From IMG/VR virus record IMGVR_UViG_2534681836_000019: a DNA stretch of 39,148 bases, one strand, 5' to 3'. The stretch comes from a virus. Lineage: Duplodnaviria; Heunggongvirae; Uroviricota; Caudoviricetes. Below are positions 14,826 to 34,206 of this stretch, one piece after another (position 1 is the stretch's first letter; each line of letters starts with the position of its first letter). The translations under genes were made by a program, and so were the position numbers. The notes below the pieces were generated by a model, which searched no databases, was not told the DNA's origin, and saw nothing but the letters and a program-made list of their open reading frames with translations.

Positions 14826-15186
14826 TGAGTTTTACCGGCACTTCTTCTGCACTGGTTCCGGCATCTGCCCAGACAACCCCGACCAGCGGATCAGAGCCGC
14901 TGTTAGTCAGCTGAACTTTTCCGGACTTCAGATAAACCTTCTTACCCGTTTTCATGTCATCCGTTTTCAGCTTAGGCAGCATAAACACACCTTCGGTCAT
15001 GCCGTCGCCTGTTTCACCCTGTGGAATATCGGTCAGCGCCACCGCAAAAACATCGCCCACCTGCACCAGATCTCCGCTGCTGATGGCTGCACTGGCAACA
15101 ATCGCCACCGTTTTTCCTTCTTCTACAAAATTCTTTGCCATAACTGTCTCCGCACAGCCCCGTTCAGGGGCTGATTTCAGGTACAA
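14818..15186 (-). CDS. Small head-associated protein (DUF2190-like); start may be at Met16 (15141)
   Basis: 122-aa ORF immediately downstream of the protease/capsid fusion gene, a position typical of DUF2190 proteins in HK97-type head modules. Confidence 0.55.
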   Translation of the reverse strand: MYLKSAPERGCAETVMAKNFVEEGKTVAIVASAAISSGDLVQVGDVFAVALTDIPQGETGDGMTEGVFMLPKLKTDDMKTGKKVYLKSGKVQLTNSGSDPLVGVVWADAGTSAEEVPVKLNV

Positions 15187-15227
15187 AAAAAGCCCTTACG
15201 GGCCATCAGAGTTGTTGTCTGCGACGT

Positions 15228-17186: not shown

Positions 17187-17199
17187 CCTGAACCAGGAA

Positions 17200-18708
17200 T
17201 TATTCTTCGGACTGGTCGTCGGTGTGCTGCGGCTCCTGTCGTTTCGTTGCGGCACTACTGCCTCCTTTATCACTGGCCGGATCGGTATCAAATACCAGAT
17301 CCAGCTTGCGGTTTTCATCAATTTCGGCCTTGCGCCGACGTTTGACATCATCCGGATTACGACCACCAGCACGTACCCAGTCTGATTCTGTCGCCGCTCC
17401 ACCACGAATCTGGATTTTCCAGGCCTCAGCCTCCTTAACAGGGTCAATCCACGGCATCACTGGTCCGGAATACACCGCGGTATACAGTGAAGAACGGTCA
17501 AGATCGCGGGGTAGCCTGATAACACCGGATGCCACAGCCTGTTTCAGCCATGCACGATACATCGGGCGGGTGACGGCACCAATAAACCAGTCCTGCAGGA
17601 TCAGGTAGCCATCAGTGGATTCAACCAGCTCCTGACGCTGGGCGCTGTAAGTGCCGTTATAGTTGCGCGCTGTACTGGAAAAACTCAGACGACTGCCCGC
17701 CGCCACGGCACGCAACTGACCATTACGAAAAGTTTCAAGGTTAGGATTGGGGCGATCCGACTTCACCATTCCGATTTCTTCGCCGGGTTTCAGATCGTCG
17801 TAAATAATGCCCGGCTGAATGGTAAGCTCACGTTCATTCTCCTTTCTGCCATTACCATCCGGTTCATAGCTCTGCCCGTCGCCTTTCCGGATGTACATCC
17901 CCAGAGCAGCGGCGATCCTTGCTGCAGTCAGCTCAGAATCTTCATATTCTTTCAGGGCACTGAGGCGGATCAGCACACCGGACAACAAAGACGTCCCGCG
18001 CATCTGGTGCAGACGGCGAACAAATTTAAGATGCAGCATTCGCTCTGCATCCACTTCTTTGGTTTCCATCTGCCGTCCGGATACGGGACGGCTTTTATAC
18101 ACCAGATATTTTTCGGGACGCCCCCAGTCATCAACAAACACGCCCTGATTCAGCCTGTTGCTCTCATCACTAGTCATGGGAATAAAGTCCGGCTCGAGCG
18201 CCTCCAGCCAGAAATGAACACCGGCAGAAGGCGCCAGGCTGTTTATGCGCCCGGAAACCATCTGGGCAAACACCTCACCATCGCGCAGCCAGGTACGAAG
18301 CATCAGACGTTCCAGCATCGGACGGGTAAACTGCCCGGTGACTTCCGGGCTGACAGACCATTCACTCCATCGGGTGCGAATCTCCGCAGCCAGGTCACGG
18401 GCAATGGCCCCATTGCGTAATACCGGATGTGGCTCGACAATAATCCCGTTTTTCCCCACCACCCGTTCTTCCAGCTTGTCAAATACACCAATAACCAGAT
18501 CGTGGTTGTTATCAAGGTAACGGGCCTGCTCACGTAACGACACGGCCCCGTACTGGCTTAACTGGTCGGCAGTTCGGTTCTCCCGTCGGGCTTTGTGTGT
18601 CCGCGTCGTTTTTACGGCCTCATAAGCCTGGATCACCGCACGGGAACGCAGCCTTGCCGCTTTCCATCCTGGTGAAAAAACGCCAATCACATCATCAAGA
18701 ATTGCCAT
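17200..18708 (-). CDS. B: Portal protein (lambda B family); longest ORF starts at 18780
   Basis: About 500-aa ORF between W and the capsid gene; start at Met25 overlaps the W stop. Confidence 0.85.
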   Translation of the reverse strand: MAILDDVIGVFSPGWKAARLRSRAVIQAYEAVKTTRTHKARRENRTADQLSQYGAVSLREQARYLDNNHDLVIGVFDKLEERVVGKNGIIVEPHPVLRNGAIARDLAAEIRTRWSEWSVSPEVTGQFTRPMLERLMLRTWLRDGEVFAQMVSGRINSLAPSAGVHFWLEALEPDFIPMTSDESNRLNQGVFVDDWGRPEKYLVYKSRPVSGRQMETKEVDAERMLHLKFVRRLHQMRGTSLLSGVLIRLSALKEYEDSELTAARIAAALGMYIRKGDGQSYEPDGNGRKENERELTIQPGIIYDDLKPGEEIGMVKSDRPNPNLETFRNGQLRAVAAGSRLSFSSTARNYNGTYSAQRQELVESTDGYLILQDWFIGAVTRPMYRAWLKQAVASGVIRLPRDLDRSSLYTAVYSGPVMPWIDPVKEAEAWKIQIRGGAATESDWVRAGGRNPDDVKRRRKAEIDENRKLDLVFDTDPASDKGGSSAATKRQEPQHTDDQSEE

Positions 18709-18926
18709 CAGAACCTCGCCAGCCGGTACCCGGGATGCCCCCGTCGTCGTGTAATCAGAGCCGCAAGGCGGCGCTCCCACTCCTGCCGTCCCTGCCGGAT
18801 CTCAGATAAGTTTTCCATGGTCATCTGCTGACCATTAAAGGTGACGGATTTTCCGTCCAGCACCGCCATTTCAGCTTCCGTATAACGCTGAATCATGGCT
18901 TCGATATCATTCTGGTTCATAACCAT
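18708..18926 (-). CDS. W: Head-tail connector / DNA stabilisation protein W
   Basis: 72-aa ORF ending RRRGHPGYRLARF, compare lambda W C-terminus RRRGPAGFYV; located between terminase A and portal. Confidence 0.8.
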   Translation of the reverse strand: MVMNQNDIEAMIQRYTEAEMAVLDGKSVTFNGQQMTMENLSEIRQGRQEWERRLAALITRRRGHPGYRLARF

Positions 18927-21016
18927 CCTCCGGAAGTCAGCCAGGGGTTAACATCGTCAGTTACTGTTTTCTTCCGTTTTTGTTTTTTAACAGGCGTGGA
19001 TACCGGTTCCGGTGAGGATGACGGTTCGGTACTGTCCTGGACACACTCCAGCCAGGTCTCCCGGCTCGCCCACTCCGGTGCATCCGGCCAGCGGATCTTT
19101 TCGTATCCATGCAGAATGACCAGAGCCTCGGCATACACCATCAGGTCAAAAGCTTCGTTGGCACCGCGACCCGGCTTACTCCATTTCCCGTCACTGCTCC
19201 GCTCTTCATACGTCAGTTCGTCGTAAAACCAGCTCCCCAGCCAGTCAGGGAAATGCACATAGCCGGGACCTGGCGAGTCACGCCATAACGCGTTATTCAC
19301 CCGGTCTTTCAGGGCATCCGTCTGAAGAAGCCAGAGCGGCACATCACCTGCGGCCTGCGCCCGTCGGCCCGTTCGTCCGGTGTTATCAGGGAATGTACGG
19401 GTGATCAGTTTTGCGCGCCGGATGCTGTCGCCCTTAAACAGGTAAATACGTTTACCAAGGCCATCACGACGGCAACGACGCCAGAATTTATAGGCATTAT
19501 CAGTGACCCCGTCTTCACCGCCGGAGTCCACCGCCATTGCCATCAGTCGCATTTGTTGAGAAGGGTCGGAGGCCAGCGGCCAGCTTTTATGAAAAACATC
19601 CGTCAGCAGGACATCCCAGTCTTCCGGATAGCTGGCTGGATCAATTCGCTGGCTCTCCCCGTCGCTGTCACCGCGCAATGACTGCGTGATGTTGTAACGA
19701 TCAATAATCCAGCGTTCGCCACGGCTGCCATAGCCCGTTACCTGAACCACAAAACGGCGATGACGTCCCGCCTGCACATCCACTGTCGCCACAAGGAAAT
19801 TAACGCCATCCGGCACACTGCGGGAAGGAACTGGCTCTGCCCGCTGCTCAAGCAATTCACTTTTTCGTTGCTCCATGCTGGCACGAGGAAGATAAGGCAA
19901 TCCCCAGTCGGTGTTGATAACCGCCCTGAGTGTTTCTTCGCTTCCTGTCGCTTCATACTCCTGTTCTGCAGTCAGTAATTTGTAAACCAGTTGCGCCCAG
20001 GTCTGATACGCAGCAGCTGGCCCTTCCATCCAGAAACTGGCGATACGGGAGCGGCGCGGTTCACCGGAAACGTTGCCGTTACGATCAATGACCTGACCTT
20101 CACGCAACCAGACTCCTGCACTATTGAGCTCACGCTTTTTCTCCGCAGTGATAATGCCGCTGCAGTGCGGGCAAAGTAGATACGCCGCCTCACTGGCTTT
20201 AAAGGGATCCGGTTCATTACGGTAGCCGGTCATGGCATCCATGGCTGGCTGAAAATATTCACCGCAGTGCGGACATGACCAGTACCAGCGGCGGCGGTCA
20301 CCACGATTGTAAAGGGAAAGAATACCAGTCGTCGGTGGCGCTTCATGAGGCGACTTACGTCGCCATTTGCTGTCGCAGATGTCACGTCCCGGCGAGCTCT
20401 CCACCAGAGTCATCCCGGCGGACATAAATGTGGTGGTACGTTTTGAGGCCAGGGAGAAACCATCACCCTCGCTGTCGATATTCTCCGGAAAACGGTCGTA
20501 ATCGGTTAAGGCGACAAACCGGTAATCCGACGACGACATAATGTTGACCGAGGGCCAACCAATTTTAAGGAACGAGCCATCCCTGAACGTCTTATCATGG
20601 ACATTATTGTCGTTACGACGTGGACTCATTCTTTTCTTTACCGCCGCACTGCTTCTGAACGTTCTGTCGAGGCGCTTTTTAGAATGCTCGCGGGCCTTAT
20701 CTTCGGTCATCTGCACAACGAGCATGTCCGAAGGATCGCAAACGATGGTATAGACAATCCATCCATCGATCAGACCAATGGTCTTCCCTGTTCGCGCAGG
20801 ACCAACAAAAATCACCGCATCGTATTCACGCGATGCCAGGCAGTTCATGGGCTCAATGATGTAGGGTGTCAGTTCAGGATCCCATGGCACCGAGTTACCA
20901 GCCCCCTTGGGAACACGCATGAATTTTTTAACAGCCTCCGAAATCGGCATGCGACGTGGTGGGGAAAATCCTGCCGATATGTCCCTTCCCAAATTTCGGG
21001 CTGATGAAAAACCCAT
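18917..21016 (-). CDS. A: Terminase large subunit (lambda A family)
   Basis: 699-aa ORF with Walker A-like motif VGPARTGKT near the N-terminus; follows Nu1. Confidence 0.9.
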   Translation of the reverse strand: MGFSSARNLGRDISAGFSPPRRMPISEAVKKFMRVPKGAGNSVPWDPELTPYIIEPMNCLASREYDAVIFVGPARTGKTIGLIDGWIVYTIVCDPSDMLVVQMTEDKAREHSKKRLDRTFRSSAAVKKRMSPRRNDNNVHDKTFRDGSFLKIGWPSVNIMSSSDYRFVALTDYDRFPENIDSEGDGFSLASKRTTTFMSAGMTLVESSPGRDICDSKWRRKSPHEAPPTTGILSLYNRGDRRRWYWSCPHCGEYFQPAMDAMTGYRNEPDPFKASEAAYLLCPHCSGIITAEKKRELNSAGVWLREGQVIDRNGNVSGEPRRSRIASFWMEGPAAAYQTWAQLVYKLLTAEQEYEATGSEETLRAVINTDWGLPYLPRASMEQRKSELLEQRAEPVPSRSVPDGVNFLVATVDVQAGRHRRFVVQVTGYGSRGERWIIDRYNITQSLRGDSDGESQRIDPASYPEDWDVLLTDVFHKSWPLASDPSQQMRLMAMAVDSGGEDGVTDNAYKFWRRCRRDGLGKRIYLFKGDSIRRAKLITRTFPDNTGRTGRRAQAAGDVPLWLLQTDALKDRVNNALWRDSPGPGYVHFPDWLGSWFYDELTYEERSSDGKWSKPGRGANEAFDLMVYAEALVILHGYEKIRWPDAPEWASRETWLECVQDSTEPSSSPEPVSTPVKKQKRKKTVTDDVNPWLTSGGWL

Positions 21017-21024
21017 TATTCCTC

Positions 21025-21582
21025 CTAGAGACTCTCTCCTTCCTCATCAGGAATTAATTCAGCAGCACAAGCCTCGTAGGATTTTTCCTGAAGAGTGTAT
21101 CGCAGGTCATCAATGGCCTGCTGTACAACGCCGACGGCCTGAGGAGTCAGGGCGCAATCGCGTTCAAGAACATCCGGAATTGTCTCCAGAACCTGGACGA
21201 CAGCCTTTCTCATGGACGAATAGACGATGACTACTTCATCAACGGGGATGAGTTTTCGCTGCTCCTTTTCCAGCTTGATCCTTTCATTTTCAGACTGGTA
21301 CCAGTCCTTTCTCTCTTTCGGCTCCATACGGGATGGATCATGAACAGAGTCTGCTGCCTCATGCTTCACACTAAACAGGGCTGGCCCGACATGCTGCAGG
21401 GCGTAAACGGGGTTCCCCCTGACAGTCGCAGCCACAGGAGTGTTAGCCGCGAGGAGCCGTTTTTTTACTGTGTCCCGGTGAAGCCCAAAGGCCTCAGCGA
21501 TTTTAAAAACACTCCAGTAATAAGCATCACCGATCCCGCTCACATTTGACATAAGCAACTCCATCTGGCAGGTGAAAATCAT
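21025..21582 (-). CDS. nu1: Terminase small subunit (Nu1 / NohA-like); alternative starts at 21564 or 21552
   Basis: N-terminal HTH-like region YYWSVFKIAEAFGLHRDTVKKRL; immediately downstream of the cos site and upstream of A. Confidence 0.85.
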   Translation of the reverse strand: MIFTCQMELLMSNVSGIGDAYYWSVFKIAEAFGLHRDTVKKRLLAANTPVAATVRGNPVYALQHVGPALFSVKHEAADSVHDPSRMEPKERKDWYQSENERIKLEKEQRKLIPVDEVVIVYSSMRKAVVQVLETIPDVLERDCALTPQAVGVVQQAIDDLRYTLQEKSYEACAAELIPDEEGESL

Positions 21583-21699
21583 GTTTATTTATATATTTCA
21601 ATTAATTGCAAACTGGTCTAATGACAGGGAGAAAGAAATATTGTACAGGTGAAAAGAGAAATAACTTTTAATTATCAATAAATTACCAAACATGCTGCC

Positions 21700-21800
21700 G
21701 CCGCCATGGAAATGCAAAAACTAGCCTTTTTCCGCGACGCTCCCGCCCCGTGGCAGGGGCCCCCACCGGGAGGACCCGACAGCCTGACAGCCTGACAGCC
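21700..21800 (-). other. cos: Cohesive end site cos (cosN candidate at 21737-21748, minus-strand sequence GGGCGGGAGCGT)
   Basis: Minus-strand sequence CGGGTCCTCCCGGTG...ACG GGGCGGGAGCGT CGCGG aligns with lambda GGGTCCTTTCCGGTG...ACG GGGCGGCGACCT CGCGG; lies just upstream of Nu1. Confidence 0.75.
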
Positions 21801-21936
21801 GTGATGAGCATCTGATACAGCGCTTTACATAATGGCATAGGAATAATTCAGAAGGACATCACAGCATGCCCACACAAATTAGTGTGAGTGTCCTGTTTCT
21901 TCCTACGCACAGGACTGACGAGCATGAGGGGAAAAT

Positions 21937-22104
21937 ATGCGAACCATAAATGCCTCATCTTCAGCAATGCAACCGGCATCCGAACAGGACGATATTGTAA
22001 ATTCACCTAATTACGAGGACATTGCAGTAGTTGAATTGCAGCTCTGTATTAGCCTGACAGTGACAGAATGCGATATTGACTCTGTCACAGGTGAAATAGT
22101 TTGA
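21937..22104 (+). CDS. Hypothetical small protein (55 aa)
   Basis: ATG preceded by GAGGGG Shine-Dalgarno at good spacing; below the ORF-track length cut-off; no recognisable homology. Confidence 0.35.
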   Translation: MRTINASSSAMQPASEQDDIVNSPNYEDIAVVELQLCISLTVTECDIDSVTGEIV

Positions 22105-22124
22105 ATGATTAGCAGTTATGGTGC

Positions 22125-22331
22125 TCAGTCAACCACCAGGGAATAATCCTTCGAATTCTTATCGTGCTTCACCAACGCTGCCTCAATTGCCCTGAATGCT
22201 TCCAGAGACACCTGATGTTCTATACATGCAATTACAACATCCGGGTAACTCATAGAAATGGTGCTATTAAGCATATTTTTTACACGAATCAGATCCAACG
22301 AGACTTCATCAGCAGATTGTTCTTTATTCAT
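22125..22331 (-). CDS. Hypothetical small protein (68 aa)
   Basis: ORF in the accessory region between cos and ydfO-like gene; no recognised motif. Confidence 0.4.
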
Positions 22332-22631
22332 TTTGTCGCTCCATGCGTTTGCTCGTCATCTAGCGGTTAAAATATTACTTCAAATCTTACTGCATAAAAG
22401 AGGAAAAGTATGAAAGTTTGAGTACATCGACCTTACATACATCTGTCGGTTGCATATCCCTCCTGGATGCCAGCAAGGCTCAATTTTGTTACGCAATCAA
22501 CACTATTCATTAAAAACAGGCTTAATATTTGACATAAATCATCAACAAAACACAAAGAGGTCAGACCAGATTGAAACAATAAACACGATAATGCTAACTA
22601 CGCGCCATCGTATCACATGGAAGGTTTACCA

Positions 22632-23042
22632 ATGGCTCAGGCTGCCATTTTTAAAGAAATATTCGATCAAGTGCGTAAAGATTTAAACTGTGAATTATTT
22701 TATTCTGAGCTAAAACGTCACAATGTCTCACTTTATATTTACTATTTAGCCACAGATAATATTCACATTGTGTTAGAAAACGACAACATAGTGTTAGTAA
22801 AAGGACTCAAAAAGGTTGTAAATGTTAAATTCTCCAGAAACAAACATCTTATAGAGACCTCCTATAATAAGTTGAAATCAAAAGAAATCACATTTCAACA
22901 ATACAGGGAAAATCTTGCTAAAGCAGGAGTTTTCCGATGGGTTACAAATATCCAGGAACACCAAAGATATTACTATGCCTTTGATAACTCATTACTATTT
23001 ACTGAAAGCATCCAGAAAACTACACAGATCTTACCACGCTAA
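22632..23042 (+). CDS. ydfO: YdfO-like protein (136 aa from second Met; longest ORF starts at 22617)
   Basis: Synteny with Qin (nohQ, ydfO, gnsB, cspI); a possible hairpin follows the stop. Confidence 0.55.
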
Positions 23043-23193
23043 ACCATAACGTCCGGCTTCTCTCACTCCTGAGCCGGACTGCATTGGTTTAATAAAAACC
23101 ATCAACAATTGTGATTTAGATATTCGGAACCATTCAAATATAACAAAACCCCGTAAAAACGAGGTTTATGGATAAATTTTATTATTGAATACA

Positions 23194-23366
23194 TCAGATT
23201 AAATTAATCTTGACATCATAGCTTTCAAGACCCGTCATTTTTTCCCGTGCGGTAAACTGAATACTGGTAACTTCTTTCCCGGTCTTTTTCTTAAGTTCAA
23301 TAATTTTTTTGTTATATATTCAGAAATATCTGCTTCTGCTTTTGTTTTTAAGTTTTCAATATTCAT
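23194..23366 (-). pseudogene. gnsB: gnsB-like small protein gene, reading frame broken by a 1-nt deficit in a homopolymer
   Basis: Frame 1 gives MNIENLKTKAEADISEYITKK then stops early; one extra A in the 7-T run at 23304-23310 (plus strand) would give ...IIELKKKTGKEVTSIQFTAREKMTGLESYDVKINLI*, close to GnsA/GnsB as recalled. Confidence 0.6.
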
Positions 23367-23537
23367 CATTTCCTCTTTTAGTCTGTTATGACTTTCCAGT
23401 TACACAGTAAGTCGATTATATGGTGCAAACGTGTAAAAGATAAGATGAAACATCGCAATAATCAACATACGATAGTCTAAATTTTACACAAACAGACAAA
23501 GAAAATTTTCCTGAATTATCAATACAATAGCATCAAA

Positions 23538-23729
23538 TCAACTCAAGAGCCTTATTGCTGCTTCCAGAATTTCTTCTGAAGTAACATGTCGATCCGCGGC
23601 TACATAAATGACTTTATGATCTCCGGTCAGAGATGGAAACCCTGCGGCCATTACAGTAAGGTGTGTTTTTTCGCCATTTGGATATTCACGCATGATGGTG
23701 TTAACTCCAGTCATCGCTGGCACTACCAC
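23538..23729 (-). CDS. Hypothetical small protein (63 aa)
   Basis: ORF between the gnsB-like gene and cspI-like gene; function unknown. Confidence 0.35.
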   Translation of the reverse strand: MVVPAMTGVNTIMREYPNGEKTHLTVMAAGFPSLTGDHKVIYVAADRHVTSEEILEAAIRLLS

Positions 23730-24037
23730 TGCTGGTTCAGAGTTAAAAAAACTATGATTTTTTCATGATGTTACCGTAGTATGTGAGTATCCATCGAATA
23801 GATACCAAGCAAAAAAGCTCCCGAAGGAGCCTTCATTTTCACTTTTTTAAATCCAACGACAGACGGCTGGCATTTAAGTATTGTGAAATATTATCAAATG
23901 TAATCATCATTGATTTACAAAAGATACATTTTGCCCCGAAAGGATTCATGTCAGAAACATCAAAAGATGATGTTCTATACTGGGAACCATGACAACACGG
24001 GCATCTAAAGTGAATATGGTTTGTAATATTGTCTACC

Positions 24038-24250
24038 TCAAAGCGCCACTACATGAACAGCGGCAGGACCTTTAGGTCCGTTCTCAATACCAAATTCAAC
24101 TTCCTGATTCTCAGTTAATGTTTTGAAATCGTTGCTCTGAATTGCTGAGAAATGGACAAACACATCTTTGCTGCCATCTTTCGGCGTGATGAAACCAAAA
24201 CCTTTTTCAGGGTTAAACCATTTCACTAAACCAGTCATTTTGTTAGACAT
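24038..24250 (-). CDS. cspI: Cold shock protein, CspI-like
   Basis: 70-aa [41 protein letters not shown]... with RNP1/RNP2 cold-shock-domain motifs. Confidence 0.9.
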
Positions 24251-24612
24251 AATTATTACCTTTTGAAGAAATTAGCCCTTGGGCAGAATGGTCCGAAAAA
24301 AAATATCAGAGAGAAAAACCAACAAGGAAATCTCAAGAGGTACAAATAATAAAATTATAACAATGACTGCTTCAGATAAATTTGTAACAAACCAGAACAC
24401 CATTAACGCATGATTAACCACCCATAGCAAGGATTACTTTTGTAAAGAAAAACACAGCAATGAAAGAATAGCTTTATTTATTAATAAAACGTGTCATTCT
24501 GATTAAGACCTTTTATCTTACCCTTAAGATTTCAGGAATTTTGGCTCATGGAAGAGTCCTTTTTATTTAAATTTTACATTCCGCGATGTAAATGTTCCGA
24601 TTTAATATTACC

Positions 24613-25636
<1,024 letters not shown>

Positions 25637-25640
<4 letters not shown>

Positions 25641-25948
25641 ATATATTTATGATGAGGACGCTCGTGCTTATTGGCAGGATTTTCAATCTTAAAGGAGTAC
25701 TGATGCTGCAGATAAGACTCAACTTTTTCTGACAATTTTTCTGCTACTTCCAGGAAGACTTGCCGGACGCTCCTTCTGGCTGCTGCCTCATAAAACTCCA
25801 GCGCAGCTCCTTCAACACGGTCCATGGCGACATCCAGGTCAAAAATTTCACCGTCAAAGCGTTCCTTGTCCTGTAAGGCTACAGTTACCGTAACTTTATT
25901 CTCAAAATTACGGACTCCTTTCACAACCAGTTCATAGTCTTGAGTCAT
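25637..25948 (-). CDS. ydfR: YdfR-like protein (103 aa), inserted between holin and endolysin
   Basis: ORF tightly coupled between holin stop and endolysin start; same position and size as ydfR in Qin. Confidence 0.6.
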
Positions 25949-25952
25949 TGGA

Positions 25953-26168
25953 TTACTCTCCTCTCGCAGCCTTACGCCTGTCTTCTTTAATCTTGAAATA
26001 AAGATTTGTCAGATACGTCAGCAGGCCAAAAACCAGGCTACCCAGCACACCGATTGCAGCCCACTGTGACGGAGTTACTTTATCGAGTAACTGTAATGCC
26101 CAGAAACCAGCATTACCCGCCGATGTGCCATAGGCAACACCTGTTGTTAACTTATCCATTGATTTCAT
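25953..26168 (-). CDS. S: Pinholin (phage 21 S-like class II holin) with dual-start motif MKSMDK; longest ORF starts at 26246
   Basis: [71 protein letters not shown]: two transmembrane segments, charged C-terminus, Met1/Met4 dual start. Confidence 0.9.
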
Positions 26169-26387
26169 ATCCTCACCCCGATGTACACGGATGGTGCAAT
26201 ATGTTTGAAAAAGATCGGAGTCTACGGGGTAGTTTTGACAGCACACGTTGTTCTCAACGGCGCTAAAGAAACATACACATTAAAAATGTGAGTAATTATT
26301 TTGAAAGAAAGTCATATATAAAATAATAATACGAGAAATGTTTTCATATTTAGTGTACTGTATACGGCCATTATACAGGAAAAGCCT

Positions 26388-26558
26388 ATGTCAGAACGTA
26401 AAGACTCAAAATCACGCCGTAATTATCTCGTTAAATGTTCCTGCCCAAACTGCACCCAAGAGTCAGAACACAGTTTTTCAAGAGTACAAAAAGGTGCCCT
26501 TTTGATCTGCCCTCATTGCAACAAAGTATTCCAGACAAATCTTAAAGCTGTAGCCTGA
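26388..26558 (+). CDS. Small zinc-ribbon protein (56 aa, CxxC...CxxC), possibly YnfU-like
   Basis: MSERKDSKSRRNYLVKCSCPNCTQESEHSFSRVQKGALLICPHCNKVFQTNLKAVA; below ORF-track cut-off; AT-rich promoter-like region upstream, hairpin downstream. Confidence 0.55.
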   Translation: MSERKDSKSRRNYLVKCSCPNCTQESEHSFSRVQKGALLICPHCNKVFQTNLKAVA

Positions 26559-26620
26559 TTGATTTTATTAGTAACAAGTATTTTTTATATTTTAATAATA
26601 TATTTAAAGCAGATAATAAA

Positions 26621-26640
26621 AAACCCGCCTGAGCGGGTTT
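26621..26640. terminator. Hairpin terminator (possibly bidirectional)
   Basis: aaacccgc-ctga-gcgggttt stem-loop, A/T-rich on both flanks; 62 nt downstream of the zinc-ribbon ORF. Confidence 0.5.
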
Positions 26641-26921
26641 GAGATTGTGGTGCTTTTTGTGGGAGTCATCCACTTACGCACTTTGTTTTGCGATGCCAGC
26701 AGTTAGCTTCTGCTGTGAAACTATTCATGCAGCAAACCTGCACTTCACCACAATGGTTAGCATACTTTTCCTGATTAAGATTTTGCCAAATATGCTAGCC
26801 ATTGTTTCATGTATTGGACCTCCTTACTTTTTATTAAAGAGATCCAATATTCACTACTCTGTCCGTATCTCTACTCAGGCATCAGCCTTCTTCGTTATCG
26901 TATACAGACGAGCGATGAATT

Positions 26922-27137
26922 TTAATCAGTAATGATGACATTTGCTGCTGCAGGACCTTTAGCACCTCTCTCTATAGAGAAGGTAACCTTTTGACCTTCA
27001 AATAAGGTTCGATAATTATCATTCTGAATCGCAGAAAAATGCACAAACACATCTTTACTACCATCAACAGGAGAAATAAAGCCGAAACCTTTATCAGCGT
27101 TAAACCATTTTACTAAACCAGTCATTTTATTTGACAT
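26922..27137 (-). CDS. cspB: Cold shock protein, CspB-like
   Basis: 71-aa [41 protein letters not shown]... with cold-shock-domain motifs. Confidence 0.9.
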
Positions 27138-27435
27138 TCTACATTCCTTAACTTGAGCCTTTCGGCATAAATGGTTTGCATAACAGAAACGACTTCGTAC
27201 TTAATTGGAGAGACTCAAAGAAGGAATAAGTGAATAACACCTGAAATGAGAACTGCTTTAGTAAACTACTTCGTATATCGTCTGTTCTTCAAACCGACGC
27301 AGTCATTAACTCATAGTTGAACATATGAAGCAATGTTTATTTTAGACATCCAGCCACCTTCAATCCTATCAAAAAAGTAGTTTTCTCCAGGAACGTGTGT
27401 ATGGTGCACCAGGTTATCAGTATTAAGGAGTTTTT

Positions 27436-27690
27436 CTGTCCCCTAAAATGACAGGAATTGTCAAAAACTTTGACTACAAAAGCAGCAAAGGTCTTATATT
27501 CCCATCCGATGGCGTATCGATGCCCAGCTTCACGTTTCAGCTCTCAATCTTCGAGATGCAGAAGAAATTACCACAGGATTACGCGTGGAATTTTGCTGGA
27601 TAAATGGTTCGCGTGGACCTTCAACTGCCAATGTTTATCCCGGGATGAGATTCAATATCTCTATTGCCCCATTTAAAGCACAAAAACCCG
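27436..27690 (+). pseudogene. cspF: cspF/cspH-like cold-shock gene, apparently frameshifted and lacking an in-frame stop before the terminator
   Basis: Frame X gives (CTG)[25 protein letters not shown]; the X-1 frame continues [42 protein letters not shown], matching the CspF/CspH family as recalled; junction near 27513. Confidence 0.55.
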
Positions 27691-27706
27691 CTTATAAGCG
27701 GGTTTT
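27683..27706. terminator. Bidirectional rho-independent terminator between cspF-like gene and Q (candidate tR-prime for the late transcript)
   Basis: aaaacccgc-ttat-aagcgggtttt perfect stem-loop with T-run on the plus strand and A/T tract on the other side. Confidence 0.65.
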
Positions 27707-27812
27707 CTACTTTTTTCTAAACGTCGGATACACAAAGCCCATCGTTGAGAAAATCTTATCCATATTTTTTGAAAAATGCAAACATCATGTCGCCATCTTC
27801 AGCAAAAATCAT

Positions 27813-28565
27813 TTATCTCGTCACCTTCCTCAATTGCGCTTCCGCGTATGCTTCTTCCTGCCAGCACTTTGTTACCAGTTTACCAATGACGTCCGCATAC
27901 CCCTTATACCACTGATAATCGGTCAGGTCTGGTACCAGCTTCTGGACATGACGTCGTGCCAGCGTGGTCGGTAAACGACTAAACCGGTTTCCATTACAAC
28001 GCCCACAAATCTTATATACCGGTACGCCATGAAACCGGGTTCTTTTTTCATCCAGAACAATCCCTTTACCCTTACACCCTCTGCACGCTGTGCTGACTTC
28101 GCCCTTACCATGGCAATGCTGACATAGTTCCTTCACCCATTCTTCCTTGATTACAGATTCCCCGCGTCTGTAGTGTTTCACCACTTCGCGCAATACATTA
28201 TAAAATCCCGTACCTGAACAATGCTCACAGCGAGCCTTACTTGCCGCAGACCTGGAGTAATCAGCAAAGGCAAAATTCACGAGGTAAGGAATAATCTGTA
28301 ACCGGATTTCTTCACTCAATTTGTTCAATGTCGGGTTATCCAGTGCCATCGCGTAATTTAGCAGGCCTTCAATCGCAAACTGAGCGTCCTGAACACCAAC
28401 TTTTGCCAGAAATAAGGCCAACCCAAGTGGTGCTTTCGACTGCACCATCCCCTGCGCTGCCATTACATCCGTAATTGTTAAACAACCGGTGCCTGTCGCT
28501 GGAGCGTCATCGCTCAATTTTGGAGATTTTGGGGAGTAATATTTTGGTAAGGCTTCAAGGTTCAT
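27813..28565 (-). CDS. Q: Late antiterminator Q (QuuQ-like, zinc-finger type); longest ORF starts at 28595
   Basis: 250 aa from Met11; Cys/His clusters [30 protein letters not shown]; position upstream of the lysis genes. Confidence 0.85.
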
Positions 28566-28578
28566 GCTCGTTCTCCAC

Positions 28579-29667
28579 TTACGCCAGTACGCCAATTGCC
28601 AGCGCGCGATCGATAAAACGAAATATCAGCTCCAGTTGGGAGCCATACTTCTCTTCAAATGCCACTGTATCCGTATGCAGCTCGTTGTGATGCTTTCTGC
28701 ACAAAGGCAACACAAAGAGATCATGTGCTTTTGTTCCCATTCCGCCCTGCCCGTGACCAATCAGATGATGCGGATCGTCGGCTGGCATACCGCAGCAAGC
28801 ACACGGCTGTGTCTTAACCCAACGTGTGTATTTCTCCTTAACCCAGCGGCGACGTTTAGGCAGCTTCATGAAAGATTCCGGAGACTCTGGATCAACGGTG
28901 ATGCTTACCACCGCCTTTTCCTGTGGTGTTTTTTGTTGCTGGTGGGCGTAAGGCAACGGTGCAAGATTTTTTGTGCGTTGTTTCAATATGCTGGTGGCGG
29001 TCTGCTCTCCCGGTACGATGTCGCTTTCGCGGTACACCGAGCAGATTTTTTCCGCTGGTAATCCCAGCGAACGACGCGATACAGCCTCAGGTAGTGCATC
29101 CACCACCTGATTGCAGACCGCCCACCAGGATAATTCAGCCAAAGATAATTCCCGCTCCTGCGTACCGCTTATTGCGTGACGGATGACGTCAATCACCCAT
29201 GCTGTCAGATTTTGTTGAGCAAGCAGCTCCAGTGATTCCGATGTCTGGTCACGCAGTTGGTTGTCGCAGTGCCAACACAACACCATTGCGCCGGTACCAT
29301 AACGGTGAATGACTGTTTCAGAGTGATGGTAATCGCCATTAGGCCACTGGCAGGATGTAACATGACGTAATAGCCAGTCAGACAATGCGCCAACACCGCC
29401 AGCAGCACGAATCACCCGTTCGTTACTAAAAAACGGCAGCAATGTTTTGTCTTCCGCCAGCGACTGGCGAACGGCAGGAACGACTCCGGATGGCAGATTA
29501 CGCATGCTTTTTGGTTCCGGTTCCACCAGCACTCGAGGATTATGAAATATCTGTATGGATTCACGGCCCGGCTTAAGGACCACCAGCCCAAGCTCAGGCA
29601 CCAGAACAGGTCTAAGTAATACCCGCACGTTACCTCCAGATCCGTTGCTGGAAAGTGCGGGACGCAC
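28579..29667 (-). CDS. ydfU: DUF968-like protein (YdfU-like) with C-terminal HNH/zinc-finger-like motif; true start uncertain
   Basis: C-terminal CACCGMPADDPHHLIGHGQGG...CRKHHNELH motif; position immediately upstream of Q as in Qin. Confidence 0.65.
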   Translation of the reverse strand: MRPALSSNGSGGNVRVLLRPVLVPELGLVVLKPGRESIQIFHNPRVLVEPEPKSMRNLPSGVVPAVRQSLAEDKTLLPFFSNERVIRAAGGVGALSDWLLRHVTSCQWPNGDYHHSETVIHRYGTGAMVLCWHCDNQLRDQTSESLELLAQQNLTAWVIDVIRHAISGTQERELSLAELSWWAVCNQVVDALPEAVSRRSLGLPAEKICSVYRESDIVPGEQTATSILKQRTKNLAPLPYAHQQQKTPQEKAVVSITVDPESPESFMKLPKRRRWVKEKYTRWVKTQPCACCGMPADDPHHLIGHGQGGMGTKAHDLFVLPLCRKHHNELHTDTVAFEEKYGSQLELIFRFIDRALAIGVLA

Positions 29668-29908
29668 GTGGTGGGCGTTCGGAGTAAGGCAATCTGACTG
29701 AGATTATCCAGTGACGGTAGTCGAGGCTAAGGGCTTTCTTAACCTCGTATCCGCGCCTGCGGTAACACTGAATTATCCATTCAGCCTGCTCTTCAGTGCA
29801 TGGAGGGTGTTGGAACCATTCAGACTTGAATGCGTGAGAATACCGCTCGTGCGTGCAGACAAGAACGGGCGAATTATCAGAATTGTAATATTTTACGTTG
29901 CGTGCCAT
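29630..29908 (-). CDS. Hypothetical protein (92 aa)
   Basis: ORF upstream of and slightly overlapping the ydfU-like ORF; could be a separate gene or a displaced N-terminal part. Confidence 0.35.
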   Translation of the reverse strand: MARNVKYYNSDNSPVLVCTHERYSHAFKSEWFQHPPCTEEQAEWIIQCYRRRGYEVKKALSLDYRHWIISVRLPYSERPPRASRTFQQRIWR

Positions 29909-29974
29909 CGGTTTTCTCCGGTGGCACGGTGTTACTCAGCGGGAGTTCAGCCCCGCGCAAGATTGTAGATGAGT

Positions 29975-30226
29975 TTATTCTTCTGCAAAAGCTGAAAAGC
30001 CTGCTTTTATTCCGATCTCTTTCAGTGCCTGTAATGAAGTGACAAACTCACCTTCGCGCAAGATAAATCCGTCTGTCACTCGACCATCCACAAAATTAAT
30101 TAACGCAGCCCCATTCTTTCGCAAACACATAATGCGGTAATGACTAACAAAATTTCCATTTTCAACGCACACAGCATAGAGGCCATCTTCACAAAAAATT
30201 TTACGCAGTTCTTCGATGTTCATCAT
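29975..30226 (-). CDS. rem: Rem-like hypothetical protein (83 aa)
   Basis: 83-aa ORF between ydfU-like gene and hokD, same size and position as rem in Qin. Confidence 0.55.
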   Translation of the reverse strand: MMNIEELRKIFCEDGLYAVCVENGNFVSHYRIMCLRKNGAALINFVDGRVTDGFILREGEFVTSLQALKEIGIKAGFSAFAEE

Positions 30227-30345
30227 CAGAATCCTTCCGGATAATTAGCTCTCCCCTTTAAGGGACCATCCCTCTTATCCCTGCGCGCTACTTAAGTATT
30301 TTTGATTCTATTCCGGCACCGTCCAGAACTTCAAACGCGTTGAAA

Positions 30346-30374
30346 ATAAAAACAAAAACCCGCCGAAGCGGGTT
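30346..30374 (-). terminator. Rho-independent terminator of the relB-relE-hokD operon
   Basis: aacccgc-cgaa-gcgggtt hairpin followed on the minus strand by TTTTTGTTTTT, about 70 nt downstream of the hokD stop. Confidence 0.65.
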
Positions 30375-30442
30375 AAGTGCGGGTGCGTTGAGGATGCCTG
30401 CCACATCAGAGGTGGCGAGGGATTTCTCCCTCGCCGGGTTTC

Positions 30443-30598
30443 TTACTCCTCAGGTTCGTAAGCTGTGAAGACAGCGACCTCCGTCTGGCCGGTTCGGATT
30501 CGTACCTCGCAGAGGTCTTTCCTCGTTACCAGTGCCGTCACTATGACGGTTAAACAGATGACGATCAGGGCGATTAACATCGCCTTTTGCTGCTTCAT
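30443..30598 (-). CDS. hokD: Hok-family membrane toxin HokD (RelF)
   Basis: Manual translation: MKQQKAMLIALIVICLTVIVTALVTRKDLCEVRIRTGQTEVAVFTAYEPEE (51 aa); below ORF-track cut-off. Confidence 0.9.
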   Translation of the reverse strand: MKQQKAMLIALIVICLTVIVTALVTRKDLCEVRIRTGQTEVAVFTAYEPEE

Positions 30599-30669
30599 AG
30601 CCTGCTTCTCCTGTCAACGCAAAGCAGAAGTGTCACCTTCGGTGCGAAACAGAGATGTCATGCTTTGGT

Positions 30670-30957
30670 TCAGAGAATGCGTTTGACCGCCTCGCTATAT
30701 ACTTCCGAGCGTTCTCTTTTCCCAACAGAAATCACGAAAACGACAACTTTCTCGTCTATAACCTGGTATACAAGGCGATAGCCTGAAGACCGGAGCTTAA
30801 TCTTGTAACAATCAGGCATACCACGGAGCTTGTTTGCTTCAATCCGGGGTGACTCAAGTACTTCAACCAGCTTCTTTTTCAACTGTTCACGTACCGTCGA
30901 GCCCAGCTTTCGCCATTCCTTTAGTGCCCGCTCGTCAAAATCCAGAAAATACGCCAT
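30670..30957 (-). CDS. relE: mRNA interferase toxin RelE
   Basis: 95-aa ORF MAYFLDFDERALKEWRKLGSTVREQLKKKL..., recognised as E. coli RelE. Confidence 0.95.
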   Translation of the reverse strand: MAYFLDFDERALKEWRKLGSTVREQLKKKLVEVLESPRIEANKLRGMPDCYKIKLRSSGYRLVYQVIDEKVVVFVISVGKRERSEVYSEAVKRIL

Positions 30958-31196
30958 CAGAGTTCATCCAGCGTCACACGTACTGGCTTAGGATTACGAA
31001 GCCGTTCTTTCACTATCTCCACAAGTTCAGCATCTTCATCACTCAGGAGTGTCTGTTTGAACGGCAAGCGTTCATTGTCAGCGATATACTCGAGCATGAG
31101 ACGAAGCGCTTCAGAAGGAGTTACACCCATTTTTTCAAGCGCGGCGTAAGAACGCGCTTTAAGTTCATCGTCAATACGCAGGTTAATGCTACCCAT
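30957..31196 (-). CDS. relB: Antitoxin RelB
   Basis: 79-aa ORF MGSINLRIDDELKARSYAALEKMGVTPSEALRLM..., recognised as RelB; stop overlaps relE start. Confidence 0.95.
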   Translation of the reverse strand: MGSINLRIDDELKARSYAALEKMGVTPSEALRLMLEYIADNERLPFKQTLLSDEDAELVEIVKERLRNPKPVRVTLDEL

Positions 31197-31204
31197 GTCT
31201 TACA

Positions 31205-31265
31205 CCTCTTGTAATTACAAATGTCATTACAAGTATCGCACTACAACATGCTTAGGGCAAGTCAC
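31205..31265 (-). promoter_or_regulatory. relBE promoter/operator region (relO-like inverted repeats)
   Basis: Minus-strand CTTGTAATGACATTTGTAATTACAAG (31208-31233) contains inverted TTGTAAT repeats just upstream of the relB start. Confidence 0.6.
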
Positions 31266-31526
31266 GAAGGAAGTCAGAAAGTAGTCGTAAGAACGGTGAT
31301 CACTGTCCGCTTTGTGCCAGGAGCAGCCATTGCTAAGTCCATCCTGTATTGTGCAGGTCAGCTCGTTTTTAAAGAGTCCGGCCATCATCTTACTGGTACA
31401 GACACCATATACTTTGTGACGGTCAGGCTACATATGCACAACTCAACTTATTCATCTATTTTTTGCTTTAGCATGTCAGTGTTGCTTTCTCGTCGGCGGG
31501 TGAGCGGTGACCTGACCTGTCGATAA
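31221..31526 (+). CDS. Hypothetical ORF (101 aa) in the relB-flxA divergent intergenic region; may be non-coding
   Basis: ORF only; its ATG lies inside the rel operator; no RBS or motif support. Confidence 0.2.
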   Translation: MSLQVSHYNMLRASHEGSQKVVVRTVITVRFVPGAAIAKSILYCAGQLVFKESGHHLTGTDTIYFVTVRLHMHNSTYSSIFCFSMSVLLSRRRVSGDLTCR

Positions 31527-31680
31527 AGGAACGTAGCACGTTTTATGCAACACCCGCATGCGGCAGAAAATTATTGCCGAACGTTTACCCCTGTCAACAA
31601 GCTTTACTTTCTGAGGCGCGCCAGCCCGCGAGGAAAACAATCTGAACATCAAACAATTAATGACACAAGAAATACGATTA

Positions 31681-31707
31681 AAGATTTTTTTGTGCATGCC
31701 GATAGTG
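31681..31707 (+). promoter_or_regulatory. Sigma-28 (FliA)-type promoter for flxA
   Basis: TAAAGATT (31681-31688), 11-nt spacer, GCCGATAG (31700-31707), close to consensus TAAAGTTT-N11-GCCGATAA; about 20 nt upstream of the flxA start. Confidence 0.6.
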
Positions 31708-31728
31708 CTTTTTTAAAAGGAGAAATCT

Positions 31729-32060
31729 ATGTCTGTCACAATTCAGGGAAATACCTCAACCGTTATTTCAAACAACTCCGCCCCGGAAGGAACATCAGAA
31801 ATAGCCAAAATCACAAGACAAATTCAGGTGCTGACTGAAAAGCTTGGGAAAATCTCATCGGAAGAGGGGATGACGACACAGCAGAAAAAAGAATGGCTGC
31901 ATTGGTACAGAAGCAAATTGAAAGCCTCTGGGCTCAACTGGAGCAGTTGTTAAGGCAGCAGGCAGAGAAAAAGAATGAAGACGCGACAGTTCAGCCTGAT
32001 AAAAAAGAAGAGAAAAAAGACGATACAAATACCGCTGGCACCATTGATATTTACGTCTAA
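31729..32060 (+). pseudogene. flxA: flxA, reading frame interrupted by a 1-nt deficit in an A6 run (intact ORF is 31729-31953, 74 aa)
   Basis: Frame 1 MSVTIQGNTSTVISNN...TTQQKKE then shifts; the -1 frame continues MAALVQKQIESLWAQLEQLLRQQAEKKNEDATVQPDKKEEKKDDTNTAGTIDIYV* to 32060; one extra A at 31885-31890 restores a 110-aa product. Confidence 0.65.
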
Positions 32061-32075
32061 GTGACAGCCGTATTG

Positions 32076-32100
32076 TGGCCCTCATCGGGCCACTTTTCGC
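32076..32100 (+). terminator. Candidate rho-independent terminator downstream of flxA
   Basis: gtggccc-tcatc-gggccac hairpin followed by TTTTCGCC. Confidence 0.45.
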
Positions 32101-32444
32101 CATCAGCCTTTTCTTTAAAGACATATTATCTTTGTATCATTTCTGATAGTTAACATTACAAGATATAAGTAATGGACGCACTCCCAATTAGTCTATTTAA
32201 ATCGCCACGAGTTTAACTGACAACCCATGATCAATTATGAATTGCAACTATTTCTGTAGTCACTTTTGTGGGGACAGTCCACAAAACTGCCAACTTCCGC
32301 TTCTTGCTCTTAGCGGACATTAGCATAGGCTATTTGCCATAACGCCTCATTACGCGCACCGCCCAGACTGACTCAGCGCGTTTCTGGCATATCCCCGGTA
32401 AAACAAGTAACAAACCACCCGAAAATGAACACCAGAAACGCGAC

Positions 32445-33840
32445 TTAAGAATCTACCCTATGAATGGATATGCACTCAACCGAATCGATCTTGGTTTCAA
32501 TCTTTTTTATCGGGATCAGGCTTCTTTTTAGGTAACTTCGGGGGCTTAACTTGCTGATGACTTTGCGTTCGGCGCGTAAGCCAGGGATGGTCAGCTTTAG
32601 GTTTAACATAGTATTTTGAGCGTAAATCAATACGGGCATTATCCACTCGTTCATGGACACTCTTTTCATCATCCAGTGGTATAGGCTCCGGGCCATCAAC
32701 ATACTTTTCCCAGCCCAGCGCTTTCCCGTCATACAGAACGTTAATTTCACCGTCAAAGTTCTCGCATACAGTAACAACCGAATGCCTAAGTCGATATCCC
32801 CGGCCCTCACTGCGTACCTGAAACGCACTGCTTTTGTACTGGAAAGTGAGATTTTTAGACAGAACGCGCTTCGCCTGTAGGCTGAAGATATAACCCAGTT
32901 CCTCTTCAGAATGGTGCACATCAAGATGAGCATTATCAGTAGTACGAGGCGACGTAGCGAACCGGTTGTTATAGGCTTCAATAAAGGTCGGCAACCATGC
33001 ATTTGCTGTTTCAATATCACTGATATTCTGAAGCCGCATTTCTTTGACCAGCCTGTCCTGTAGTGTCTGATTGGCGCGCTCTACCCGCCCTTTTGCCTGC
33101 GGGCTGTTGGCATGGATTGGCTCGATGCCCAGTGTCTTTATCGCACGAGTGAACTGGGTACAGCTCACCTTCCCGCTCTGGGTTATTTACCCTGAATATA
33201 CTGTGTCTATCAGAGTAGAGAGCGAGCGGTACGCCATGATCATTAAGGTAACCCCGGAGGGTTTCCATGTAAGCCCGGGTTGTTTCAGCAGGCACAAAAC
33301 GCAACGCCATCAACGCACTGGTGGCATCATCAATGAAAACGATCAGTGTACATCTGGGGCCTCGATTTTCAAACCAGTCATGAGGTGAGCCATCAATCTG
33401 GATCAGTTCACCGTAAGATGGTCGTCGCATGCGGCGTTGATATATACGGGCAATTTTACGACGGCGTTCACGCCATACCCCCTCTTCTATCATCCACTTT
33501 CTGAGAGTTTCAACGGATAAAGATAAACCGTGTATCTCACGCAATTTTTCGCACGCAAACGTAGGTCCAAAATCAGCGTAACGGCCTTTGAGGAGTGAAA
33601 TTACTGTTGCTCTGAATTCAGTAGAAAAGGAATTATTAGGACGCTTTCCACGTCGGGGGGAAACCAGACCAGAAGGCCCTTCATTTCTATACCGTTGCAC
33701 CAGACGTTTAACCTGCCGAATAGAAATGCCAATGCGTGCCGCAGCTTGTTCCTGAGTAATATGTCGATTAATTGACTCCTGAATAATCTGAAGTCGGTGG
33801 AGTCCTTATGACTCATCGTAACAGTCTCTTTGATCATGAA
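32445..33840 (-). mobile_element. IS-like element remnant: HTH plus rve-type (DDE integrase core) transposase gene, split across at least two frames
   Basis: Minus-strand ORFs 33017-33700 (HTH-like IGISIRQVKRLVQRY, then IQIDGSPHDW...YSDRHSIF) and 32497-33168 (GRVERANQTLQD); frame break near 33150-33170 inside the catalytic core; N-terminal start also out of frame; ends not defined. Confidence 0.7.
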
Positions 33841-34206
33841 AAATCCCCCAGAGAATTGTCTGGGGACATTTTAGAATGGTTCAAAGGGGACATTACAGCT
33901 TGGTGTTAACACATCATAGCCCCTCCATTGCCTTCCGGCGGTTATCGGGCTACTATAATGTTGTCTAGGCATTACAGTGGAGCCCTTGGTTGATTGATAA
34001 AAAAATCTCCAGGGGCTTTCTGCTGTATACCGTCCACAAAACGCTTTCGGCATACAGCCTCAAGCGCCCGCAGCTATTCCAACGACTTTCGTATCTGCAA
34101 CAATCCTTTTATTCGCACGGCTAATTCCTCTGGTTAGCTCTTATCGCCTGCAAATAAATTTTTAACCTTTCCGTTTGATTTAAATTCCAGAAATGGAGAC
34201 TTTGTC

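Follow-up and report, generated by a model that had tools for sequence, protein, structure and literature searches.

A relBE-carrying IS1202-family transposon at hok genes and the probable passage from a Qin-like prophage to an IncI1 plasmid in an Escherichia coli DEC9C contig

The 39,148-nucleotide stretch of DNA analysed here (the window) is the entire contig AIGM01000026.1 of the draft assembly GCA_000249935.2 of Escherichia coli DEC9C, the AIGM prefix corresponding to this stx-negative O26:H11, ST29 strain from Switzerland, 1952 (Table 1, PMC5592225). A first-pass annotation had proposed that the Qin-like prophage in the window is truncated after flxA through loss of its early and immunity region. 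A different reading, taken as a whole, is very likely: the relBE genes belong to a transposon that targets hok genes, the contig is a hybrid of chromosomal and plasmid DNA, and the early region of the prophage lies off the contig. Under this reading, flxA, the non-coding stretch behind it and the supposed insertion sequence (IS) remnant are the interior of the transposon at 30613-33911, which specifically targets the position 14 bp upstream of hok start codons and duplicates 16-17 bp there. Insertion detaches hok from its own promoter, mok and sok and brings it downstream of relBE, which gives the classical relB-relE-hokD(relF) order of Qin. The left flank is chromosomal hokD, the right flank is the sok half and trbABC of an IncI1 plasmid followed by IS2, and the early genes of the prophage are simply off the contig.

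The relBE transposon and its insertion at hok genes

The boundaries of the transposon were fixed by comparing occupied with empty sites. The features of the transposon and its target in the window are as follows (CDS, coding sequence; ORF, open reading frame).

30613..33911, minus strand: IS1202-family transposon (transporter IS), 3.3 kb, with relE, relB, ydfV, flxA and the transposase gene between terminal repeats
30612..30637, plus strand: terminal inverted repeat at the relE end, TGTCAACGCAAAGCAGAAGTGTCACC, 19 of 26 positions matching the reverse complement of 33886-33911
33886..33911, minus strand: terminal inverted repeat at the transposase end, TGTTAACACCAAGCTGTAATGTCCCC (minus strand)
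32497..33837, minus strand: DDE transposase gene, IS1202 family, ISEsa1-like, present as three ORFs in the window
32296..33911, minus strand: IS core of 1,616 bp common to all cargo variants, 91.4% identical to the Citrobacter 4.6-kb variant
30670-30957, minus strand: relE (NCBIfam RelE_StbE, 1.1e-14, 54.7 bits, cutoff 27.9)
30957-31196, minus strand: relB (NCBIfam PRK11235 RelB, 3.1e-39, 133 bits, cutoff 96)
31221-31526, plus strand: ydfV, cargo; an ORF annotated as YdfV in all 3.3-kb copies
31729-32060, plus strand: flxA, cargo, as two overlapping ORFs (31729-31953 and 31893-32060)
30443-30598, minus strand: hokD, type I toxin CDS with its own start codon and Shine-Dalgarno sequence (Pfam HOK_GEF, 1.2e-23; NCBIfam Hok family)
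30597..30612: target copy at the left end, ATAGCCTGCTTCTCCT, of the chromosomal hokD type; it takes in part of the hok start codon and its Shine-Dalgarno sequence
33912..33928: target copy at the right end, CATCATAGCCCCTCCAT, of the hok/pnd type of IncI1 plasmids, differing from the left copy
33912-34069, minus strand: sok-type antisense-RNA/leader half of a plasmid hok (pnd-like) locus (Rfam RF01794, 133.5 bits, gathering threshold 59)

The terminal inverted repeats are imperfect and 26 bp long, within the range of the IS1202 family (about 22-28 bp). The transposase gene, which the first-pass annotation had taken for an IS remnant, is full length in the references; in the window two private indels, 33160 (+A) and 33802 (-T), split it, and in the IncI1 plasmid pDEC9B-1 it is a single ORF of 446 aa. 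The 446-aa protein matches HTH_28 (1.2e-12), HTH_32, HTH_23, HTH_29 and rve_3 (1.7e-6), in agreement with the DDE transposase of about 390-510 aa with an N-terminal helix-turn-helix that is characteristic of the IS1202 family. On several plasmids, RefSeq/PGAP names the full-length protein “IS1202-like element ISEsa1 family transposase”.

The relE and relB genes form a type II toxin-antitoxin operon that reads out towards hokD, and the RelB and RelE protein accessions in all copies are identical to the K-12 type. No Pfam or NCBIfam match is found for ydfV. An A-run at 31891 in flxA is one base short, which breaks the reading frame, and the intact 110-aa FlxA from pDEC9B-1 matches Pfam FlxA (2.3e-14). 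The transposon copy in the window shows no substitutions relative to pDEC9B-1 and 5-10 relative to eight other copies. Private 1-bp indels are present at 31891, 33160, 33802 and 34112 (four in 2.3 kb), of which flxA contains one and the transposase gene two. Because no substitution separates the transposon from the copy on the sister plasmid, these indels suggest draft consensus errors rather than real pseudogenes.

A comparison of copies reveals that the genes in the middle of the transposon are exchangeable. In the 3.3-kb version, which includes that of the window, the exchangeable cargo is ydfV and flxA; in a 4.6-kb version from Citrobacter and Klebsiella (4,599 bp; L008, 2520-7118, and L027, 720-5318) it is a CDF transporter and a cytochrome b gene, and in a 4.15-kb version from Citrobacter freundii (4,154 bp; L028, 720-4873) it is a hypothetical gene and a DUF2158 gene. 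Two cargo variants share only the core at 32296-33911 and an arm at 30613-31324, which comprises the terminal repeat, relE, and relB with its promoter region and is 99.0% identical between them. The boundary between cargo and core at 32296 falls inside the gap that had been described as non-coding. A compact IS measures 1.3-2.5 kb and has the transposase as its sole gene; at 3.3 kb (4.15 and 4.6 kb in the variants) and with at least four cargo genes, the relBE unit is better termed a transporter IS or unit transposon, and of the whole unit only the 1,616-bp core has the size of an IS. A search allowing up to 8 mismatches in 26 finds no internal terminal repeat where the 1.6-kb IS core would formerly have ended. 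Short GGGGACAT-like motifs occur as two near each end of the unit (33862-33911 and 30612-30662), inverted between the ends, and as two more in direct orientation near the cargo/core boundary (32270-32325); these motifs may be candidate transposase-binding sites.

At eleven other occupied sites, from five genera, the insertion point is always 14 bp upstream of the hok start codon. These sites are the MB30 chromosome, pDEC9B-1 and nine further copies, which are found on Salmonella IncIgamma/K1, E. coli IncK2/Z and Klebsiella pneumoniae IncFIB/HI1B plasmids and on IncF-type plasmids of Enterobacter roggenkampii, E. cloacae, E. asburiae, Citrobacter freundii and Citrobacter sp. At ten of the sites the transposon is flanked by perfect direct duplications of 16-17 bp of local sequence, and at the eleventh by the same with a one-base difference; six different target sequences and three cargo versions are represented, and the duplication is 16 or 17 bp long at otherwise identical targets. 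Duplications in the IS1202 family measure 5, 16-17 or 27-28 bp, a pattern to which the ten perfect reference copies conform and the copy in the window does not: the latter has no target duplication because its flanks stem from different replicons. In the MB30 chromosome, ATAGCCTGCTTCTCCT is found on either side of the transposon, and the empty site of DEC9B has it a single time; in the window, the right end of the transposon lacks a matching copy. The 17-mer CATCATAGCCCCTCCAT likewise borders the transposon on both sides in pDEC9B-1 and is single in ordinary IncI1 plasmids. The Shine-Dalgarno sequence and part of the hok start codon fall within the duplicated segment.

Empty sites are abundant: the flanks and a single 17-mer are contiguous in 757 plasmids (99.6% in the top matches listed), and the chromosomal hokD locus is uninterrupted in 771 of 5,426 complete E. 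coli genomes. These empty sites, the local duplications, the inverted repeats and the intact DDE transposase indicate that the relBE unit is a transposable element rather than a recombination cassette. A 3.3-kb block spread by homologous recombination through hok/sok flanks would fit the restriction of all insertions to homologous loci, where flanking homology is possible, but it is highly improbable, since recombination in the flanks would bring in donor sequence, whereas both sides of each insertion carry the local variant of the 16-17-mer (six sequences), which is single in empty sites and varies between 16 and 17 bp when duplicated. Spread solely by homologous recombination is largely refuted by these duplications of local sequence.

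Insertion at the hok start parts the hok CDS from the half of the locus that contains sok, mok and the promoter. In the window, the match to the sok model is full length (model positions 1-157 of 157) and begins exactly at the right boundary of the transposon, and hok, with its own ribosome-binding site, is left 71 bp downstream of relE. The Hok ORF (30443-30598) and sok (33912-34069) lie 3.3 kb apart and derive from different replicons, and the hok/sok locus is disrupted as a regulated unit. Co-transcription of relB, relE and hokD has been established in K-12 (Gotfredsen and Gerdes 1998, as cited in PMC5120126), and integration of relBE at hokD was noted earlier (Ramisetty and Santhosh 2016, as cited in PMC6379469). 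The searchable literature, in which the 2016 relBE paper is represented through citation only, gives no account of the transposase, repeats, duplications or hok specificity of the unit; as far as checked, these appear to be new, and the integration of relBE at hokD is known.

Passage from chromosome to plasmid within the transposon

The sequences on the two sides of the transposon, in addition to the target copies listed above, are as follows.

1..30443, minus strand: late region of a Qin-like lambdoid prophage (tail fibre, J, tape measure, head, portal, terminase, lysis, Q, ydfU and rem), assigned by homology to DEC9B
34207-35415, plus strand: trbA, IncI1 transfer gene with a DotM_C domain
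35434-36504, plus strand: trbB, IncI1 transfer gene
36497-38788, plus strand: trbC, IncI1 transfer gene
38859-39148, plus strand: left end of IS2 (IS3 family), its first 290 bp, starting TAGACTGGCCCCCTGAA, 70 bp past the trbC stop
On the other side of the hokD target in the chromosome: hokD leader sequence, ATAGCCTGCTTCTCCTTGCCTTTCGG

Alignment of the window to the finished sister genome DEC9B divides it into three parts. Positions 1-30612 are 99.69% identical to the chromosomal Qin-like prophage of DEC9B; positions 30608-38858, including the right junction of the unit, are 99.915% identical to the IncI1 plasmid pDEC9B-1; and positions 38859-39148 are IS2 (97.9% identity to a copy in the DEC9B genome and 97-99% across IS2 copies). 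The DEC9B prophage, located at rspB, has a left arm that is virtually identical to the window, but its hokD site is empty and the unit resides on the plasmid. The hokD allele in the window is of the chromosomal type, identical to those of DEC9B and MB30. The trbA, trbB and trbC genes, named from the pDEC9B-1 annotation, constitute a standard IncI1 neighbourhood, and together with the sok half (99.9% to pDEC9B-1) they are the signs of an IncI1 backbone on the contig, from which nikB, excA and tra genes are absent. In ordinary IncI1 plasmids the hok-trbA site is uninterrupted; in the window, by comparison, hokD and 30 kb of prophage stand in place of the plasmid hok gene and of all that lies left of it (excA, tra), and IS2 follows trbC.

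Unmatched flanks are found only in the copy in the window, which is bordered by the hokD 16-mer of the chromosome at its left end and by the IncI1 17-mer at its right end, and the contig consequently passes from chromosome to plasmid inside the transposon. A transposon copy between target and donor flanks is the junction expected in a cointegrate. The arrangement in the window, with target-replicon DNA (hokD) on one side and donor-replicon DNA (IncI1 sok/trbA) on the other, resembles cointegrates and Hfr-type integration in this respect; it differs in that one of the two expected junction pairs is seen, and recombination between two copies or mis-assembly gives the same picture. The three closest finished relatives (DEC9B, 7_33_46A and OkiPb01717) have an empty chromosomal hokD site, and two of the three carry the transposon on an IncI1 plasmid. 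Because of these empty sites and the absence of substitutions relative to the copy on the sister IncI1 plasmid, the simplest reading is that the plasmid copy would have transposed to hokD in the DEC9C lineage and so formed the hokD-transposon junction.

Two other origins of the junction were considered and rejected. A join within hok/sok homology does not agree with the breakpoints, which are the exact ends of the transposon, or with the chromosomal hokD leader, which does not align with the right flank. In the detached sok/leader half, substitutions at 33979 and 34080 are private to the contig: these positions are A and T in all 13 sampled aligned IncI-type plasmids, and the next 4.7 kb equals pDEC9B-1. 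A right flank that is a mosaic of chromosome and plasmid was rejected since both substitutions are private and are not chromosomal alleles. In a separate 5.02-Mb record, CP149415.1, a complete-looking IncI1 tra/exc/hok/trb/nik segment is present at 3313713-3334921, which points to another strain with an IncI1 plasmid integrated into its chromosome.

The early region of the prophage and the reality of the join

The genes and signals that precede the break are, in addition to those above, as follows.

27813-28595, minus strand: Q/ydfT-like gene
28579-29667, minus strand: ydfU/DUF968 gene
29975-30226, minus strand: rem
32075-32097, plus strand: hairpin GUGGCCC-UCAUC-GGGCCAC followed by UUUU, with a G+C-rich stem of 7 bp (free energy -18.3 kcal/mol, z = -3.0)

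Much of the description in the first-pass annotation agrees with these features. The gene order Q, ydfU, rem, hokD, relE, relB, flxA is as described, with ydfV to be added to it. The terminator reported after flxA corresponds to the hairpin at 32075-32097, which is a probable flxA terminator even though a simple consensus terminator scan omitted it on account of its tail of only four U. The non-coding stretch before the IS, given as about 380 bp, is close to the 436 bp between the flxA stop (32060) and the stop of the transposase ORF (32497), in which there is no credible gene; a Rfam scan of 30000-34400 yields the sok match alone and nothing in this gap. The late genes of the lambdoid prophage (Q, lysis, terminase, head and tail) are present at 1-29667 by homology to DEC9B. 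To the right of flxA, as had been stated, the contig contains no repressor, cro, replication, N or integrase gene, and the transposase gene, sok, trbABC and IS2 are found there instead.

The conclusion drawn from this absence is only partly sustained. The prophage sequence does stop and never resumes on the contig, but loss of the early and immunity genes is not shown, and a deletion does not describe the break, which is a switch from chromosome to IncI1 DNA inside a transposon with mismatched flanks and no deletion scar. Both ends of the contig are repeats, the left one inside a tail-fibre gene and the right one 290 bp into an IS2 copy, and both end sequences are multi-copy in this lineage. 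Since the window is a whole draft contig, absence from it is absence from the contig only and is silent on the genome. Truncation is not established because the contig ends in repeats and because the near-identical prophage of DEC9B keeps a full early region. More generally, a prophage that “ends” at a mobile element in a draft contig cannot be called truncated, and in this case the contig changes replicon at that element. Protein lookups revealed no further DEC9C contig: the DUF4209 protein encoded after IS2 in DEC9B led to other genomes only, TrbA led to nothing but ordinary IncI1 contexts among 45,546 blocks, and the frameshifted FlxA fragment led to the present contig only.

In DEC9B, hokD is followed by IS2, DUF4209, DUF977, replication genes, YdaT, Cro and the repressor, and then by ydfA, dicB, ydfD, exonuclease, Xis and Int next to rspB. 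OkiPb01717 has DEC9B-like early genes up to the exonuclease, where the examined stretch ends, and the arrangement of the early region without IS2 is widespread. The 7_33_46A prophage, in contrast, is truly truncated (NZ_CP074819.1, 2942500-2953500, at about 6104-8086 of that stretch): an empty hokD is followed by DUF4209, DUF977, a cut replication gene, IS903B and rspA, and the region lacks cro, the repressor, dicB, exonuclease, xis, int and rspB. Truncation therefore does occur in this lineage, as 7_33_46A shows, and is not demonstrated in DEC9C. Two IS2 insertions lie between hokD and DUF4209, one in DEC9B (L003, 33319-34650) and one in OkiPb01717 (L032, 7450-8678); they are at different positions and in opposite orientations, and are independent, and the hokD-DUF4209 interval looks like an IS2 hot spot.

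That the join of chromosome and plasmid exists in the DEC9C genome, as a cointegrate-type replicon fusion or as a deletion remnant ending at IS2, is somewhat probable. Such a join could have formed as a cointegrate, by replicative transposition or by recombination between two copies, or it could be the remnant of a fusion trimmed by an IS2-associated deletion; alternatively, a simple insertion and a free plasmid could have been mis-joined by the assembler. The real join is favoured because assemblers usually stop at a two-copy 3.3-kb repeat and because the IS2 located 70 bp after trbC is absent from the sister plasmids, so that the plasmid side is not simply pDEC9B-1; the passage of a 39-kb contig through the unit would also suggest a single copy or mate-pair support. 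A mis-join, with a simple hokD insertion, an identical copy on a free IncI1 plasmid and a contiguous, probably complete prophage, is less likely but a substantial possibility; the 2012 draft assembler would then have passed into the 3.3-kb repeat from chromosomal DNA and out of it into plasmid DNA. Two sister strains bear exactly this plasmid copy, and the absence of substitutions makes two indistinguishable copies plausible. Simple insertion is moreover the usual outcome for most IS families.

Several observations weigh against the interpretation preferred here, and in part they speak for the mis-join. Among the 5,426 complete E. coli genomes, neither the hybrid hokD-transposon-trbA arrangement nor the trbC-IS2 junction occurs in any. 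The evidence from DEC9C is a single contig, and it shows neither the presence of the early region in the genome nor the reality of the join. Three one-base indels and no substitutions are found in the 3.3 kb of the transposon, compared with five one-base indels in the other 35.8 kb, an excess with P ~ 0.01 by a Poisson estimate; this pattern looks like a poor consensus and could mark a troubled region of the assembly. Formation of a cointegrate is itself an assumption for the IS1202 family, and ISEsa1 has been reported without detectable target duplication (PMC10132070).

The original proposal, restated as a loss of the early, immunity and integration region that leaves a non-inducible remnant with a trapped plasmid fragment and an IS2-associated deletion, is improbable. 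The contig does lack the early genes and has IS2 at the end of the plasmid fragment. The same region has also been remodelled by IS elements in the relatives, by IS2 in DEC9B and OkiPb01717 and with an IS903B-associated loss from cro to int in 7_33_46A, and the 4.83-kb deletion of K-12 Qin starts inside the same transposase. The contig nevertheless merely ends, with no deletion of early genes visible; DEC9B keeps the full set beyond IS2, OkiPb01717 keeps at least DUF4209 through exonuclease, and this arrangement is widespread. Should the chromosome-plasmid join be real, at least 8.2 kb of foreign DNA, or a whole plasmid in the case of a cointegrate, would lie between the late and the early half of the prophage, which could be disabled by this separation rather than by the proposed loss. 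Identical copies of the element would then also provide a route for the integration of IncI1 plasmids into chromosomes.

Relation to K-12 Qin, MB30 and the IS1202 family

The K-12 Qin prophage has the order ydfT-ydfU-rem-hokD-relE-relB-ydfV-flxA-ydfW-ydfX-dicC-dicA and the same left junction between hokD and the unit, and is 98.8% identical to the window over 27638-32681. It differs by a 4.83-kb deletion that extends from inside the transposase gene to a ydaT-like gene just before dicC. As a result, dicC/dicA lie 0.9 kb after flxA in K-12, whereas in the window the full-length unit is followed by plasmid DNA. YdfW of K-12 is the last 49 residues of the transposase (398-446; L026, 6175-6637), and “ydfX” starts where the deletion joins the transposase remnant to the ydaT-like gene upstream of dicC. 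The K-12 genes may accordingly be reinterpreted, with ydfW as a transposase tail and hokD as a decapitated hok, while ydfX looks like a ydaT-like remnant. The MB30 prophage, also at rspB, has the unit between hokD and the hokD leader with a perfect 16-bp duplication, and after the unit it continues with replication genes, dicC/dicA, dicB, exo, xis and int, where the right flank in the window is plasmid instead.

The unit has in common with the IS1202 family a DDE transposase (about 440 aa) and terminal repeats that are imperfect and about 25 bp long, and with one subgroup of the family it shares duplications of 16-17 bp. Its IS core of 1,616 bp is close in length to ISEsa1 (1,609 bp; PMC10132070), the comparison being by listed features. 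Target specificity is known in this family, as relatives of ISAjo2 target dif/pdif (PMC10132070). The unit differs from the family in its size, which is doubled by cargo (relBE and the exchangeable genes), and in its target, which is the translation-initiation region of hok rather than dif. The presence of duplications in the hok-targeting unit and the report of none for the ISEsa1 subgroup (PMC10132070) set the two apart within the family.

The K-12 relBE(-hokD) locus, familiar from textbooks, appears to be carried as cargo by a hok-homing transposon. If this is true, it provides a concrete mechanism for the spread of a type II toxin-antitoxin system among plasmids and prophages of several genera, in which one addiction module would be delivered into another and would disable the regulation of the latter. 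In a bolder and rather doubtful form of this interpretation, relB-relE-ydfV-flxA-“ydfW” of Qin would be an active IS1202-family transposon specific for the ribosome-binding region of hok genes on plasmids and prophages, which decapitates hok/sok loci, brings hok under the control of relBE and swaps its cargo, and the DEC9C contig would have been caught in the Hfr-like fusion of an IncI1 plasmid into a prophage that is split by it.

The differences between the window and the DEC9B chromosome in 1-30612 number 96, of which four are in 7000-30612, and three of these four are homopolymer indels. The other 92 cluster at 1-7000, in the tail-fibre gene, lom and the C-terminal region of J; the divergence of this segment may reflect recombination between lambdoid tail genes, or else several prophages may have been collapsed into one consensus.

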